A stretch of DNA of 64,000 nt from an uncultured SAR86 cluster bacterium. GTDB taxonomy: Bacteria > Pseudomonadota > Gammaproteobacteria > Magnimaribacterales > D2472. The stretch covers positions 6,684 through 70,683 of the forward strand of contig CAXYBK010000002.1 in NCBI GenBank assembly GCA_964275345.1, written 5' to 3'. Positions 29,779 through 34,042 of the stretch are shown here, one piece after another; position 1 is the first letter of the stretch; the number at the start of each line of letters is the position of its first letter. A model generated the notes under the pieces. That model worked only from the letters and a program-made list of their open reading frames with translations, searched no databases and was not told the DNA's origin. Position numbers and translations under genes: made by a program.

Positions 29779-31011
29779 ATGATTAATAAAAAATTTGATA
29801 TTATTATTCTCGGCGCAGGTGCAGCTGGCTTAATGGCGGCATTGACTGCAGCGCAAAGAAATAAAAGTGTTTTAATCTTAGAAAAATCTAATAAAGCTGG
29901 AAAGAAGATTTTAATGTCTGGTGGCGGCCGTTCAAATTTTACAAATCTGTATGTTGAAGCAGAAAATTTTCTTTCAAATAATCCACATTTTTGTAAATCA
30001 GCTCTTACAAGGTACACACCTGATGATTTTATAAATCTAGTTAAGAAGCACAGAATAGATTTTGAAGAAAAGAAACATCATCAATTATTTTGTATTAATT
30101 CATCAAAAGATATTCTTAATATGCTTTTAGAAGAGTGTACTGATTTAGGCGTAGAGATTCATATGGATGTAGAAACTGAAAAAGTAGAAAAGCTGCATGA
30201 AGAGGGCGATAAGACTTTATACGAAGTGACCTCAATTTTTAATAGCAAAACATCCTCAGATAAAACATTGCTTAATTGCAAATCTCTTATTGTCGCAACT
30301 GGGGCACTATCAATACCAACTCTAGGAGGTAGCGGTTTTGGATATGAATTGGCTAAGGACTTTGAATTACCATTAGTGCCAAGGCGAGCAAGCTTAGTTC
30401 CGTTTATGTTTTCTGATGAGATTAAAGACCTATGCGAAAGACTAACAGGTCTATCTGCACCAGTAGATATTATGAGCAATAATATTCATTTTGTAGAATC
30501 AATGTTATTTACTCACAGAGGATTAAGTGGGCCTGCAATTCTCCAAATTTCAAATTATTGGAACCCTGGAGATACTATTACGATTAACCTATTGCCAGAA
30601 ATTGATGCTGCTATGATGCTAGTAAATAAAAAAGAAGAGCAGCCTAAAACTTCAATTAAAAAGCATTTAAGTGACTTATTGCCAAAGGCTCTAGTGCTCG
30701 AGTTAGAAGAAATGTCCTGGCCTGACTGTAAAGATCAAATGCTTGCCGAGATTAGCAATGAGAGGATTCAAAATATTGGTAATTTTCTAAATGCATGGAT
30801 TTTAAAGCCAGCAACGACAGAGGGATATCGAACAGCTGAGGTAACACTTGGTGGAGTTGATACAGATGTAATTAATTCAAAAACAATGGAAACTAAAGAT
30901 CACTCTGGATTATTTTTTATAGGTGAGGTTCTGGATGTAACAGGTCATTTAGGAGGCTATAACTTTCAATGGGCTTGGGCCTCAGGTTATAGTGCAGGGC
31001 AAGTGGCATAA
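29779..31011 (+). CDS. BaiN/HI0933 family flavoprotein
   Basis: GAGAAG, GKKILMSGGGRSNFTN, LFTHRGLSGP, AEVTLGGV, GGYNFQWAW. Confidence 0.93.
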   Translation: MINKKFDIIILGAGAAGLMAALTAAQRNKSVLILEKSNKAGKKILMSGGGRSNFTNLYVEAENFLSNNPHFCKSALTRYTPDDFINLVKKHRIDFEEKKHHQLFCINSSKDILNMLLEECTDLGVEIHMDVETEKVEKLHEEGDKTLYEVTSIFNSKTSSDKTLLNCKSLIVATGALSIPTLGGSGFGYELAKDFELPLVPRRASLVPFMFSDEIKDLCERLTGLSAPVDIMSNNIHFVESMLFTHRGLSGPAILQISNYWNPGDTITINLLPEIDAAMMLVNKKEEQPKTSIKKHLSDLLPKALVLELEEMSWPDCKDQMLAEISNERIQNIGNFLNAWILKPATTEGYRTAEVTLGGVDTDVINSKTMETKDHSGLFFIGEVLDVTGHLGGYNFQWAWASGYSAGQVA

Positions 31012-31056
31012 AAGTTAGTTTTTTTAATTATTTCTAATAATAAAAAATAATATTAC

Positions 31057-31085
31057 TTGAAAAAAATTACTATAAGGCTCACAAT
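31057..31085 (+). promoter_or_regulatory. Sigma70-type promoter for the RAPP leader ORF
   Basis: TTGAAA-17 nt-CACAAT; the ORF-track TTG start coincides with the -35 box. Confidence 0.5.
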
Positions 31086-31092
31086 TCTTTCT

Positions 31093-31371
31093 GTGAAATT
31101 TTGGACTAGCAGATATCTTCTTCTATTAACTGGATTACTTTTTGTATTTTCAGTTTCTTTAGACCCTTTTAATCATGGGTTTTCTGAACATCATCATGAA
31201 CTTGCAGAAGTAGAGTGCCAATTTTGTGAAAATGAAGTATTTGATACCAATCAATCTAAGTCTAAGTTAGCAAAAGTTTCGCATTTAAAAGTAATCAAAA
31301 TTGAGATAAACCAATTATTTATCTCATACCTCCCAAAATATTCTCATTCAAGAGCTCCGCCAAAAAATTAA
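31093..31371 (+). CDS. DUF2946/CruR-like leader peptide: hydrophobic N-terminus, His cluster, CxxC, C-terminal RAPP
   Basis: MKFWTSRYLLLLTGLLFVFSVSLDPFNHGFSEHHHELAEVECQFC...YSHSRAPPKN*, directly upstream of a TonB receptor; GTG 31093 preferred as start. Confidence 0.8.
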   Translation: MKFWTSRYLLLLTGLLFVFSVSLDPFNHGFSEHHHELAEVECQFCENEVFDTNQSKSKLAKVSHLKVIKIEINQLFISYLPKYSHSRAPPKN

Positions 31372-31407
31372 ATACTGAATTTTTTTTTAATTTTTTTTGG
31401 AGTTTTT
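31350..31407 (+). promoter_or_regulatory. Putative anti-Shine-Dalgarno hairpin linking the RAPP codons to the receptor RBS
   Basis: CTCC 31355-31358 pairs with GGAG 31399-31402; AAAAAATTAAA 31362-31372 pairs with TTTAATTTTTT 31386-31396. Confidence 0.6.
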
Positions 31408-31410
31408 TTT

Positions 31411-33543
31411 ATGAAACATTTATTTACAGCGCTTTTAACATTTAGCGCATTTACAAATTTTTTACATGCCGAGAGCATGGAAGAGGTTGTAGTAACATCC
31501 TCTTTTCTTGAATCAAGTAATATCAATAACCCTCTATACGTAATAGATGGTGATGATATCAATGACGGAGCAACTACTAGCTTAGGTGAAGCAGTTGATT
31601 CTTATTTAGGAGTCTCCATAGCAGACTATGGTTCTGCGGTTGGACAACCAATTATTAGAGGCATGTCTGGACCAAGGGTTAAAATCCTTAAAAATGGTAT
31701 GGTCAACCGAGATGTATCTGGTCTTGGTGTAGATCACTTGAATGATCTTGATCTAAATGACGTTAAACAAATTGAGATTGTTAAAGGCCCATCTTCATTA
31801 CTTTATGCAAATGGTTCAATCGGTGGAATTATCAATGTTGTTGATGATTGTATTGCAGAAATGGATTTTGCTGGATCAGAGTTTTCTGCAGGCTACGAAA
31901 AGCAATCTGTTAATGATGGCACTGCTCAAAACTTTAATTTTAAAGATAATCTAGGCGGCTTTAATATAAATTTTGGCTATTCAAAAATTGAATTAGGTAA
32001 TTTTGATGTTCCAGATGAAGCTATCCTTCACGAAGAAGAAGAGCATGAGGGTGAAGAAGAGCATGAAGAAGAAAATTTAGGATTTGTTAATAACTCTGAT
32101 TATCAAACAGAAGCAACAAAATTCGGCATTTCAAAAGCTGGAGATTGGGGTTACTTAGGATTCTCCGTTGATAATCTTGAAAGTGTTTACGGTATTCCAT
32201 TTCATGGAGAAGAACATGAAGAAGAAGAGCATGAAGAAGAGCATGAAGAAGAAAGAATTTTTTCAACCACAGATTCTGAAAGCTTTACTATAAAAGGCTC
32301 ATTTAACATGAATGGGGATTTAGTGAATAAAGTTGATTTCACTTTTCGTGATTCAGATTACATCTTAACTGAGGCTCATGCCGAAGAAGAGCATGATGAA
32401 GAAGAGCATGAAGAAGAAGAGCATGAAGAACATGAACCTACAAGCTTCATGAGCGCGTCTACTGAATACGGTGCAATTTTTGATCTATCTAACGACAATA
32501 TGACTCAAAAAGTCGTATTTAATGTTCTTGATGAAGATTCATCAATTATCGGCGAAGAAGCTTTTATGAATCCTGCTACAAGTGAAGAATTCACACTCGG
32601 ATATTTCATGAGTAAAGACATAGGAATGTATAACGTCGACTTTGGTTTCAGAATGGATCAAATTGAAAGGTCTGGAAGCGTAACTGATGAAGATCATGGA
32701 GATATCGACTATTACAATATAGATGATACGACTAATAGTTTTGCTGTAGCTTTAGGAAGAAGCTTAAGTGATAACTTAGATATAAATCTTGGTTTTGCTA
32801 GTGTTGAAAGATTACCTTCAGTTATTGAGCTCTTTATGAATGGACCTCATTTAGCTACCGGAAGACTTGAAGTTGGAAATCCTAATCTAAAAAGTGAAAC
32901 ATCAAATAATTTTGATGTTACTTTTGATTATGACAATGGAGACTTTTTTGCTTATGCAAGTTTTTATATAAACGAAGTCGATAACTACATTACTTTAATG
33001 GATGAAGACGAGGATCATGATGAAGACCACGGAGATGAAGACCATGGAGATGATCACGGAGAGTCAGATGATCACGGAAACTTAATCCACTCATTTTATG
33101 TTCAAGAAAATGCTGAATTTATTGGTTATGAATTAGAATTTGGAAGAACTGTTAATCTTGCATCTGGAGATTTAACTTACTCATTTGGAAGAGATCAAGT
33201 GAATGCGGAGTTTGCTGACGGACACAATGTGCCAAGAATTAATCCAGCAAGGAATGTATATTCTTTATCTTATGAACAAAATGATACTGTTTTTAAAATT
33301 AACCTGAAAAGTGTCGAAAGACAGAATGATTTTGGTGAAGGTGAGACTGCTACAGATTCTTATCGTATGCTCGATACTCGAGTAACAAAAACATTTAGTG
33401 TTAATGATAAAAGCAATATGAAAGTTACTTTATTTGCAAATAATTTGCTTGATGATGTAGCTAGAAATCATTCATCTTTTGTCAAGGGTCCAGTTCCATT
33501 ACCGGGAAGAAATGTTGGTGTTAAATTTAATCTAACTTTTTAG
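31411..33543 (+). CDS. ZnuD-like His-rich TonB-dependent receptor (probably zinc or other transition metal)
   Basis: EEVVVT, PIIRGMSGPRV, DVS..G.DH, IEIVKGPSSLLY, YGIPFH, ELFMNGPHLAT, ARNHSSFVK...PLPGRN, C-terminal Phe, four His/acidic loops. Confidence 0.88.
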   Translation: MKHLFTALLTFSAFTNFLHAESMEEVVVTSSFLESSNINNPLYVIDGDDINDGATTSLGEAVDSYLGVSIADYGSAVGQPIIRGMSGPRVKILKNGMVNRDVSGLGVDHLNDLDLNDVKQIEIVKGPSSLLYANGSIGGIINVVDDCIAEMDFAGSEFSAGYEKQSVNDGTAQNFNFKDNLGGFNINFGYSKIELGNFDVPDEAILHEEEEHEGEEEHEEENLGFVNNSDYQTEATKFGISKAGDWGYLGFSVDNLESVYGIPFHGEEHEEEEHEEEHEEERIFSTTDSESFTIKGSFNMNGDLVNKVDFTFRDSDYILTEAHAEEEHDEEEHEEEEHEEHEPTSFMSASTEYGAIFDLSNDNMTQKVVFNVLDEDSSIIGEEAFMNPATSEEFTLGYFMSKDIGMYNVDFGFRMDQIERSGSVTDEDHGDIDYYNIDDTTNSFAVALGRSLSDNLDINLGFASVERLPSVIELFMNGPHLATGRLEVGNPNLKSETSNNFDVTFDYDNGDFFAYASFYINEVDNYITLMDEDEDHDEDHGDEDHGDDHGESDDHGNLIHSFYVQENAEFIGYELEFGRTVNLASGDLTYSFGRDQVNAEFADGHNVPRINPARNVYSLSYEQNDTVFKINLKSVERQNDFGEGETATDSYRMLDTRVTKTFSVNDKSNMKVTLFANNLLDDVARNHSSFVKGPVPLPGRNVGVKFNLTF
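32029..33078 (+). repeat. Four in-frame low-complexity His/Glu/Asp tracts in the receptor
   Basis: GAAGAAGAGCAT-type units at 32029-32073, 32203-32253, 32377-32436; GATGAAGACCAC-type units at 33001-33078. Confidence 0.9.
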
Positions 33544-33568
33544 ATTTTAATTTAAATAACAAATAATT

Positions 33569-33604
33569 ATAGGGAAGCTAAATTTATAGCTTCCCTATTT
33601 TTTT
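33569..33604 (+). terminator. Intrinsic terminator
   Basis: 12-bp perfect stem ATAGGGAAGCTA/TAGCTTCCCTAT, 6-nt loop, T tract. Confidence 0.9.
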
Positions 33605-33622: not shown

Positions 33623-34042
33623 ATGGCACAATTCAATCAAATGTCAGTTAAATCACAATTAAGAACAGATAAGTATGCAGCTTCTTTGTCTTTCATATGC
33701 GCGCTTCATTGTTTACTTGCGCCATCATTCTTTATCTTAACTTCAGGTTTTTTTGCACTTTCAATAGATAATGAATTTATTCATAATTTTATTTTGTTTC
33801 TAGCCATCCCTATTAGCTCATATGCATTAATTGCTGGTTATAGAAATCATAAAACTCTTAACTTTTTATTTATAGGCTTTGCAGGCTTGTTCATGTTAAT
33901 CTCTGCGATTATCTTCAATGGAATTCTTTTTGAAGAATTAGGCGAAAAAGCATTAACCTTTTTAGGGTCAGTACTCGTTATTTATTCTCACTATAAGAAT
34001 TATCAAACATGTAAGAATATAGATTGCTCTTGCCATGAATAA
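33623..34042 (+). CDS. MerC-domain inner membrane protein
   Basis: DK....LS.ICALHC, EFIH, GYRNH, E..LT.LG.......H..N, terminal C...CSCH. Confidence 0.85.
   Translation: MAQFNQMSVKSQLRTDKYAASLSFICALHCLLAPSFFILTSGFFALSIDNEFIHNFILFLAIPISSYALIAGYRNHKTLNFLFIGFAGLFMLISAIIFNGILFEELGEKALTFLGSVLVIYSHYKNYQTCKNIDCSCHE

Follow-up and report, generated by a model that had tools for sequence, protein, structure and literature searches.

The window analysed here is a stretch of 64,000 nucleotides (nt) of forward-strand DNA from an uncultured SAR86 cluster bacterium (GTDB lineage Bacteria; Pseudomonadota; Gammaproteobacteria; Magnimaribacterales; D2472), taken from contig CAXYBK010000002.1 of GenBank assembly GCA_964275345.1 (positions 6,684 to 70,683). 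At 31093-31371 it carries a 92-codon open reading frame (ORF) that ends just after the motif RAPP and directly precedes the gene for a TonB-dependent receptor resembling the zinc receptor ZnuD. What does so small a frame do in front of an uptake receptor, and, if it controls that receptor, by what means and in response to which metal? Our analysis indicates that this leader is probably a zinc-responsive form of the arrest-leader class represented by CruR and CutF, and that it probably switches the receptor with the metal supply, a task that a Zur-like repressor appears to perform in a few relatives. The full mechanism, in which the leader would act in cis as a metal-responsive arrest switch of the CruR/CutF kind that unmasks the Shine-Dalgarno (SD) sequence of the receptor, with zinc as the most likely signal, is one that we consider moderately probable.

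Anatomy of the leader

Read from a GTG codon at 31093 to a TAA stop at 31369-31371 (this and every other feature described below lies on the forward strand), the leader has the residue order MKFWTSRYLLLLTGLLFVFSVS, then LDPFNH-GFSE-HHH-ELAEVE-CQFC, then 41 residues that run into SRAPPKN and the stop. An in-frame TTG at 31057 would give a leader of 104 residues instead; we favor the GTG because the homologues begin some 8-10 residues before the hydrophobic core. The N-terminus has the form of a signal peptide (31093-31158), with K2 and R7 in the n-region, a hydrophobic core from L9 to V21, and S-V-S before a cleavage site that was placed by eye. There follow a candidate metal-binding cluster, H28-x4-HHH-x6-C42-Q-F-C45 (31174-31227), a spacer of 41 residues (31228-31350) whose length is fixed and whose sequence is variable, the RAPP codons AGA GCT CCG CCA (residues 87-90; 31351-31362), and a tail of one lysine and one asparagine codon with the stop (31363-31371). 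The gap to the receptor gene is T-rich, contains 3% C, and includes the receptor SD sequence GGAG at 31399-31402. The original prediction had described a 92-residue ORF with an export-like N-terminus, H-x4-HHH-x6-CQFC and RAPP two residues before the stop, separated by 39 nt from a His-rich ZnuD-like TonB receptor, and every one of these features was found where it had been placed (gap 31372-31410, receptor ATG at 31411).

The source genome is available as a 982-kb assembly that is 81% complete (G000; codes beginning with G and L denote related genomes and loci, respectively). In a six-frame scan of these 982 kb, the leader was the sole stop-to-stop ORF of 30-200 residues with RAPP at most 8 residues from its end, and given that the arrangement is unique in this genome and also recurs upstream of orthologous receptors in relatives, we regard it as beyond chance. 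An AlphaFold model of the leader (pLDDT 69.7, pTM 0.30) is confident only for the signal-peptide helix (pLDDT 96, residues 11-20).

Conservation of the leader upstream of orthologous receptors

A six-frame search of 61 genomes from the same order, of 1-1.8 Mb, gave matches to the leader in 43, distributed over four families of that order. In all 30 loci that were read, the ORF ends with RAPP, one or two further residues and the stop, and keeps the first cysteine, the full CxxC being present in 25. In 29 of these loci the leader is followed, at a distance of 37-52 nt, by a long receptor ORF preceded by AGGAG or GGAGG; at the thirtieth (L025) the SD sequence, the ATG and a similar receptor N-terminus are present, and our script found no long ORF. 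The association was seen equally from the side of the receptor, an orthologue of which was found in 52 of the 61 relatives (E <= 1e-60), with a leader directly upstream in 51 of the 52. In 41 of the 51 the leader match adjoins the receptor by coordinates, RAPP having been read in 29 and the other 12 being counted on the homology match and coordinates; the remainder come from the 11 receptor-bearing genomes that lacked an initial leader match, 10 of which carry a divergent leader with the same anatomy, namely a signal peptide, a His-rich stretch, CxxC, 40-41 residues, RAPP and a tail of one or two residues. RAPP was thus read directly in 39 of the 51 leaders (29 plus the 10 divergent ones), and with the divergent junctions included the leader-receptor gap ranges from 36 to 57 nt.

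A profile search of 1.84 billion representative proteins returned 160 clusters (50% identity) at E <= 0.001, nearly all of 88-95 residues. Among the best 150 of the 160, RAPP is present in 110, RGPP in 3 and QAPP in three others, and most of the remaining 34 look, by eye, like truncated or chimeric gene calls. The 113 representatives with RAPP or RGPP have CxxC in 102 cases and a two-residue tail in 78, and in the 102 members for which the distance from CxxC to RAPP could be taken it is 40 residues in 23, 41 in 58, 42 in 8, 43 in 3, 44 in 7, 45 in 1 and 46 in 2. From the arginine codon to the end of the stop the distance is 21 nt in 28 of 29 sequences. The sequence of the spacer itself is barely conserved, with low column identity. 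In alignments of 27 and 100 members C42 is invariant and H28 at least 90% conserved, and both alignments retain the hydrophobic N-terminus, the basic n-region and the small-x-small site; at least two histidines occur within the 25 residues before the cysteine in 94 of 108 family members. The original prediction had proposed following His, CxxC and RAPP upstream of orthologous receptors, and by this measure RAPP and the first cysteine held in every locus read and H28 proved near-invariant, while CxxC as a whole held in 25 of the 30 and the HHH run did not hold, His-richness alone being kept.

A spacer of fixed length and variable sequence, without a confident fold, is the signature of a ruler joined to a tunnel-resident arrest module and not of a folded protein. 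This bears directly on the possibility that the product of the ORF is itself functional in the periplasm, binding metal as a chaperone or shuttle for the receptor, and that the terminal RAPP is incidental. Such a peptide would be expected to be exported and rich in His and Cys, as this one is, and it faintly resembles ZinT in the His-rich N-terminus of that protein (E 0.088). Against it stand the lack of a confident fold, the 41-residue segment that varies in sequence and not in length, a hairpin geometry tied to the arrest site (see below), and the invariance of RAPP with its two-residue tail, although RAPP is strongly excluded from bacterial proteomes according to the survey in PMC12992588; we give this possibility scarcely any probability.

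Several natural variants of the family may be of use. Members P0072, P0081, P0096, P0145 and P0156 end in SQAPPKI, SRATPKI or SRTPPVKLD in place of RAPP, and could show which arrest residues are needed. At locus L007 (G003:C2:70860-73276), which belongs to the genus of the window, an in-frame TAA interrupts the leader and the receptor appears split in three, which reflects either decay of the copy or a fault of the assembly, itself 59% complete. At L008, L012-L015, L018, L027 and L028 only 13-25 nt separate the start of the leader from the stop of the gene before it, the product of which ends in ...GLVCLKH; a gap this short could not hold an operator of its own, and implies that transcription reads through or starts from a promoter within that gene. 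Reading the leader upstream regions of the relatives by eye revealed no shared operator, and in the window no terminator-like site was found in 30900-31500, where promoter-like matches were no more frequent than in shuffles.

Predicted masking of the receptor Shine-Dalgarno sequence by the arrest codons

The RAPP codons double as an anti-Shine-Dalgarno sequence (CUCC). In the predicted minimum-free-energy fold the end of the leader and the start of the receptor gene form a hairpin (31344-31414) in which 31350-31359, from the nucleotide before the arginine codon through the first proline codon and including CUCC, pairs with 31398-31407 (U-GGAG-UUUUU). The inner 5' arm is formed by the tail codons and the stop: 31362-31372, comprising the last base of the second proline codon, the lysine and asparagine codons, the stop and one more base, pairs with 31386-31396. 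At the outer end 31344-31347 pairs with AUGA of the receptor start (31411-31414). The fold of 31339-31425 has a predicted energy of -17.8 kcal/mol (z -4.39), and none of 200 dinucleotide shuffles was as stable.

As a measure of SD accessibility we took the free energy needed to open GGAG, both in free RNA and with the footprint of a stalled ribosome held single-stranded. A stalled ribosome protects roughly -12 to +15 around its P site, and with the P- and A-site assignment borrowed from CruR, so that the first proline codon occupies the P site, the footprint runs exactly through the stop and covers the whole 5' arm. Opening the receptor SD in the window is predicted to cost 10.6 kcal/mol in the free RNA and 2.5 with the footprint unpaired. 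The former value ranks first of 83 genes of the source genome (ORFs of at least 200 residues with GGAG 5-10 nt before ATG; median 2.1, 95th percentile 6.17), the next gene having 7.2. In the 29 orthologous junctions the median cost is 8.4 kcal/mol free and 2.6 with the footprint, and in the 10 divergent junctions, which were picked without regard to RNA, 7.4 and 2.2 kcal/mol; the cost exceeds 6.17 in 31 of the 39. The pairing register differs between lineages, GCUCC, CCUCC or the tail codons and stop being used, the last of these in L016, L017 and L022 (one family), where the Ala-Pro codons lack CUCC and the tail codons and stop pair with the SD instead. The predicted pairing is physically expected and extreme for this genome, yet it comes partly free with C-rich Ala-Pro-Pro codons in an AT-rich setting.

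The output of an arrest could also be Rho-dependent termination or polarity, instead of or besides SD unmasking, if the stalled ribosome blocked the loading of Rho on the 3' part of the leader and Rho terminated, after release, before or inside the receptor gene. Rho is present in the source genome (696.9 bits), and the 3' part of the leader is richer in C than in G, both in the window (31280-31320, C 0.22-0.23 and G 0.05-0.08) and in 23 of 27 leaders (median C 0.18 against G 0.11), a C>G bubble being the mapped Rho-loading (rut) region in cruR (PMC9426467). The weak hairpins in 8 of the 39 junctions also leave space for another output. On the other hand, the gap of 36-57 nt, with 3% C in the window, differs from that of Bordetella pertussis, which is 162 nt long and GC-rich, the enrichment in C is modest and reaches twofold over G in only 7 of the 27 leaders, and a strong SD hairpin is predicted for 31 of the 39 junctions, that of the window being the most extreme in its genome. 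We therefore think Rho rather unlikely as the output and prefer SD unmasking. An intrinsic terminator as a conserved feature was considered and rejected, the U-run that follows the SD in the window not being kept in other genera. Strain variants in metatranscriptome data differ at 31380-31403 by changes of 1-2 nt in the length of two T-runs in the 3' arm of the hairpin.

Zinc as the likely signal

The receptor gene (31411-33543) encodes 710 residues with Plug and TonB beta-barrel domains and four loops rich in His, Asp and Glu. Its best NCBIfam model is ZnuD (NF038289), at 225.3 bits, the TonB-copper model scoring 43 bits, and the nearest solved structure is Neisseria ZnuD (E 1.3e-33), followed by a haem receptor at 1e-9; the same search of solved structures gave no match to CrtA- or OprC-type chains at E <= 1e-5. 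The buried high-affinity zinc site of ZnuD is formed by Asp99, His100, Glu340 and His499 (PMC4557270), and in a HMMER alignment D108-H109 of the plug and H480 of the barrel fall on D113-H114 and H513 of the ZnuD chain, which would correspond to Asp99, His100 and His499. These D-H and H ligands are invariant in all 20 sequences compared (the window and 19 orthologues), L045, in which the receptor gene is interrupted, having been left out of the count.

In the contigs assembled from metatranscriptomes, the His/acidic loop repeats of the receptor show in-frame deletions of 15 nt and 6 nt (32398 and 33060).

The strongest evidence comes from comparing genomes for Zur, the repressor that controls ZnuD-type receptors elsewhere. 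The source genome has Fur only and contains no perfect Zur box. Among the 61 relatives, a second FUR-family gene besides Fur was found in six (G015, G017, G022, G024, G029 and G031) and no such Zur-like gene in the other 55; the three that were scored (G015, G022 and G017) match Zur best, with 106-122 bits against 25-36 for Fur. G015 is at the same time the sole receptor-bearing genome without a leader. Its receptor orthologue, full length and 56% identical, has a perfect TGTTAT-GTT-ATAACA palindrome 34 nt before the start codon, with the same TGTTAT-N3-ATAACA core as the Caulobacter Zur boxes tabulated in PMC4176598, and the only other perfect box in that genome precedes a MerC-family gene. 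The two perfect boxes of G017 precede a MerC-family gene and another TonB receptor. In G022 (L069, G022:C1:10774-10788) a box with one mismatch ends 7 nt before the leader ATG, and in G029 (L019) a box with two mismatches, found by eye, lies just before it; these two genomes have a Zur-like gene and a leader both, which suggests dual control or a transition between modes. Within one genus there are thus examples of the operator alone (G015), the leader alone (G036) and both (G022 and G029).

The six Zur-like genomes contain 7 perfect boxes in all and the remaining 55 another 7; the reversed pattern, taken as a control, occurs 9 times in the 61 and never in the six. It is the positions of the boxes and not their counts that carry weight, because composition alone predicts about 0.4-0.6 per genome. 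One perfect Zur-type box was also seen in G003 (C1:554918), where the Fur gene was found only split.

We conclude, from these sequence comparisons, that the receptor orthogroup appears to belong to the zinc regulon in genomes with Zur and to stand under the leader in those without it. That zinc is the signal seems likely, given that ZnuD is the nearest structure, that three of its ligands appear conserved and that the leaderless orthologue has a Zur box in a genome with a Zur-like gene. The expectation in the original prediction that the cargo is zinc has in this way been strengthened, by the ZnuD-like receptor, the D-H and H ligands in 20 of 20 sequences and the Zur box, in favor of zinc rather than copper. 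Its further claim, that the receptor is regulated without a transcription factor, holds within the reach of the searches, which found Fur only in the source genome and no second FUR-family gene in 55 relatives.

The same arrest leader might nevertheless be a copper sensor, functionally equivalent to CruR, or a nickel or cobalt sensor. In CruR and in most CutF-like clusters the characteristic Cu(I) motif is CxxC, and His-only CutF-like clusters adjoin nickel and cobalt genes in the published accounts drawn on here. The receptor argues against this reading, with its match to ZnuD, its conserved ZnuD ligands, its 43 bits against the TonB-copper model and no CrtA or OprC match at E <= 1e-5, as does the absence of copper-handling neighbors in 14 loci, where PCuAC, Sco and PepSY_TM were not seen beside the receptor (by eye from ORF starts, no family search having been made). 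Against it stand also the Zur-type box before the leaderless orthologue and the second cysteine, which is dispensable in 5 of the 30 loci. A response to one of these metals in place of zinc therefore seems to us unlikely.

Relationship to known arrest leaders

The architecture of the leader invites comparison with CruR (Bp2923 of B. pertussis), a DUF2946 protein in which RAPP and CXXC are needed for control of a TonB transporter and metal relieves the arrest (PMC9426467); arrest at RAPP has been shown in vitro, with the P and A sites occupied by codons three and four of RAPP (PMC12992588). Like CruR, the leader is the first gene before a TonB-dependent transporter and has an export signal, CxxC, a spacer of constant length and SRAPP with two or three residues between it and the stop. 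For an uptake gene one would also expect the same logic, metal relieving the arrest and thereby shutting off the receptor. Unlike CruR, the leader has 92 residues (about 130-145 in CruR), a His-rich cluster and no match to the sequence family. The spacing from CxxC to RAPP is kept as tightly as that described for the CruR family (about 45 residues, constant to within 1-2) and is shorter, at 40-41 residues, as against 45 in CruR and 43-45 in the 105 of 120 DUF2946 proteins that carry both motifs, the tails of which have two residues (57) or three (48). The gap to the receptor gene is AT-rich and spans 36-57 nt, where that of CruR spans 162 nt, is GC-rich and is subject to Rho termination; the receptor resembles ZnuD and not CrtA, and the metal is probably zinc, not copper.

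Membership of DUF2946 or of DUF2607 had been raised in the original prediction, and the searches returned neither. Against PF11162 (DUF2946) the window leader gave no match at E <= 1, the six frames of the source genome gave none, and none of 27 leaders matched at E <= 10. A comparison of the leader profile with 19 DUF2946 proteins by hhalign gave a probability of 9.8%, aligning 13 columns around CxxC, with a DUF2946 profile that came from one narrow group, the relatives of a Hydrogenophaga protein. Membership of DUF2946, which was found in 3 of 151 genomes of the class, was rejected on these scans and this comparison. PF10795 (DUF2607) was absent from the Pfam matches of the 27 leaders at E <= 10. 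A DUF2607 feature match in the ESM Atlas (rank 30, score 0.93) is a lead only, and a search of 251 genomes for DUF2607 found none, in the controls either, and is hence uninformative. We place the leader outside DUF2946 and yet within the CruR/CutF class because it lacks any profile match and shares the architecture. A true DUF2946 protein does occur in the same class of bacteria (L034, G208:C1:836887-837285), with a signal peptide, CPWC, 43 residues and SRAPPLA before the stop, upstream of an ORF that resembles, by eye, a PCuAC-type copper chaperone; it offers a point of comparison for the architecture.

In CutF of Rhodobacter capsulatus, stalling melts a stem-loop masking the ribosome-binding site that belongs to the next gene, with co-translational export of the peptide (PMC9973294). 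The leader resembles CutF as a small peptide exported through Sec, with a Cys/His motif, a proline stall motif at the C-terminus, a short gap and an SD-shielding stem-loop, which is here predicted. By its 92 residues, RAPP at 87-90, signal peptide and receptor 39 nt downstream, it fits the CutF-like upstream ORFs as delimited in PMC9973294. CutF-like ORFs form 29 clusters with Cys, His or mixed motifs, some of which are thought to be nickel or cobalt sensors, and, according to the authors, TonB-like neighbors are common and not every cluster is specific for copper (PMC9973294; bioRxiv 10.1101/2025.02.05.636593). The leader differs from CutF in the expected sign of the response, which would be opposite, copper-induced stalling in CutF turning on a detoxifying oxidase, and in the stall motif, RAPP here and a PPP-type, EF-P-dependent stall there.

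Upstream ORFs with RAPP or RGPP of a 'TonB-related' class are reported to be widespread in Gram-negative bacteria (PMC12992588), and the leader is like that class in being a small secretory protein with RAPP close to its C-terminus, encoded ahead of a TonB-dependent receptor. The part of that survey drawn on here names no metal and no ZnuD-type receptor and describes no SD hairpin. ApdA, ApdP and SecM differ in that they monitor protein export and not metals. With the ZnuD-type receptors that are repressed by Zur, as described for Neisseria ZnuD (PMC4557270) and Caulobacter znuK/L/M (PMC4176598), the locus shares the ZnuD-like cargo and, by alignment, the plug Asp-His and barrel His ligands, and the orthologue in G015 has a box with the Caulobacter core; unlike them it has a translated leader in the window and in 51 of 52 receptor-bearing relatives, with an operator in addition in G022.

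Within a known class, then, the new elements would be a distinct family of about 90 residues that appears confined, as far as seen, to a marine lineage, its apparent coupling to a receptor of the ZnuD type, zinc being supported on independent grounds, the predicted use of the arrest codons themselves as anti-SD, and an apparent exchange with Zur. To our knowledge only two metal-sensing arrest peptides, CruR (2022) and CutF (2023), have been characterized, and copper is the metal in both. The authors of the CruR study point out that neither copper nor zinc has a known riboswitch (PMC9426467). Among the papers listed by a literature search none linked ZnuD-type receptors to such leaders, with the supplementary member lists of PMC12992588, PMC9973294 and PMC9426467, which may hold this leader family, outside its scope.

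A proposed mechanism and the points that weigh on it

We propose that the leader peptide is exported as it is made and that RAPP at its C-terminus halts translation three codons short of the stop. The arrested ribosome, its P site occupied by Pro89, would cover RAPP, the tail codons and the stop, which together make up the 5' arm of the hairpin, so that a stall would leave the SD free and the receptor would be made. On release, termination would allow the hairpin to re-form, burying the SD and the start codon and turning the receptor off. When zinc is available the Cys/His cluster would bind the metal, and folding or a pulling force would release the arrest; when zinc is scarce the stall would persist and the uptake receptor would be translated. 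At the moment of arrest the fixed-length spacer would keep the cluster 44-62 residues behind the peptidyl-transferase center, either a little beyond the exit tunnel or where the Sec channel opens to the outside. The last ligand being 44 residues from the P site, folding would occur outside the tunnel. A chain of 44 residues spans, by estimate, roughly the exit tunnel plus the SecY channel. If export were co-translational, the cluster would sit at the periplasmic mouth as the ribosome reached RAPP. The leader would in this way stand in for Zur in the lineage. There is an engineered precedent in a zinc finger-SecM fusion that was read through only with Zn, half-maximally at about 1 uM, with a tether of 24-26 residues (PMC4571824).

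The arrest might instead be released by Sec-dependent export, in the style of SecM, VemP and MifM, without any sensing of metal, in which case the leader would tune the receptor to export capacity or act as a constitutive enhancer. The signal peptide is conserved, RAPP leaders were first known as secretion monitors in the literature drawn on here, and any translation of the leader would transiently open the hairpin. An export monitor would have no role for an invariant cysteine and a near-invariant histidine at a fixed distance from RAPP, however, the cargo is a metal receptor and not Sec or YidC machinery, and the replacement of the leader by a Zur box in G015 argues for metal-dependent control of the receptor gene; we consider such a monitor or enhancer highly improbable.

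A number of observations weigh against a zinc-responsive switch of the kind proposed, and they concern each of its parts. For the leader itself, it starts with GTG and has no visible SD of its own, and the second cysteine is absent in five loci (L008, L011, L027, L028 and L030), which have C-x-[YF]-x. For the hairpin, sequestration is predicted to be weak in 8 of the 39 junctions, RNAalifold gave no column-wise consensus structure on a MAFFT alignment of the 29 junctions, the pairing register shifting between lineages, and the codon test, in which 64 synonymous Ala-Pro-Pro variants were folded per sequence, gave weak support, with 26 of 29 above the usage-weighted expectation by a mean of +1.6 kcal/mol and a median weighted P of 0.32; Ala-Pro-Pro codons in an AT-rich context would pair with the SD almost by default. 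For zinc, the 225.3 bits of the receptor fall short of the curated cut-off of 950 for NF038289, the ligand assignment depends on an offset of 14 between the numbering of the paper and that of the chain, which is inferred, a single offset fitting all three ligands, and Glu340, the fourth ligand of ZnuD, falls in the unaligned part. The Zur-like genes, at 106-122 bits, are under their cut-off of 167, and G022 and G029 (genus g8) carry both a Zur-like gene and a leader, so that the two are not strict alternatives. As to the place of sensing, the 44 residues between ligand and P site exceed the 24-26 of the SecM-releasing zinc finger (PMC4571824), and the signal peptide of CruR is reported to be dispensable (PMC9426467), so that sensing in the periplasm cannot be taken for granted. 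Finally, the arrest, its metal, the sign of the response and the site of sensing are all inferred here.

A bolder form of the proposal would make the leader the first zinc-sensing arrest peptide, one that reads periplasmic zinc through a chain threaded in SecYEG, turns it into receptor shut-off without any DNA-binding protein, and took over the job of Zur across the order, the replacement being caught in progress. This we hold only tentatively, as something short of probable. If it is true, the leader would be nature's equivalent of the force sensor engineered from a zinc finger and SecM. The exchange would also mean that genome streamlining can swap a trans-acting repressor for about 280 nt of cis-acting sequence, and the Zur box that takes the place of the leader in G015 makes the replacement directly testable. 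As a compact and portable part of about 320 nt, the element can be tested in Escherichia coli. With the locus present in many marine metatranscriptomes, it may matter for how abundant ocean bacteria cope with zinc scarcity.

Expression and neighboring genes

Nineteen marine RNA runs hold 49-61% of the sampled words of 30900-33600. In the four runs examined, the leader-receptor junction is bridged by contigs from two studies, X1 (31021-32123) and X2 (31343-31795), which fit one transcript, DNA carry-over being possible and contigs giving no ends, strand or level. A further contig of 302 nt without a mismatch (X18) spans 31093-31392, starting at the GTG and stopping just before the SD, although contig ends prove nothing. 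No SD is visible upstream of most leaders, and X18 could hint at a leaderless mRNA or a processed fragment.

Eighty nt past the receptor gene the window encodes a MerC-family membrane protein (33623-34042; PF03203, 86.6 bits) with CALHC in its first helix and CKNIDCSCHE at its C-terminus. A MerC gene follows the receptor in 6 of 20 relatives, and on this linkage we rejected it as part of a conserved module; the MerC-family genes beside perfect Zur-type boxes in G015 and G017 are more distant ones. It may nonetheless provide an inner-membrane route for zinc, given that no match to ZnuA or to ZIP was found in the source genome, which as an 81% complete assembly gives no proof of absence. In 4 of 20 relatives (L048, L052, L053 and L056) a second TonB receptor of about 860 residues directly follows the ZnuD-like one. 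The source genome has its copy elsewhere, outside the window (contig C3:443501-446044), and the six-frame scan of that genome found no other RAPP-ending ORF that might be its leader; the orthologue in G017 (L077; about 51% identity) has a perfect Zur-type box.

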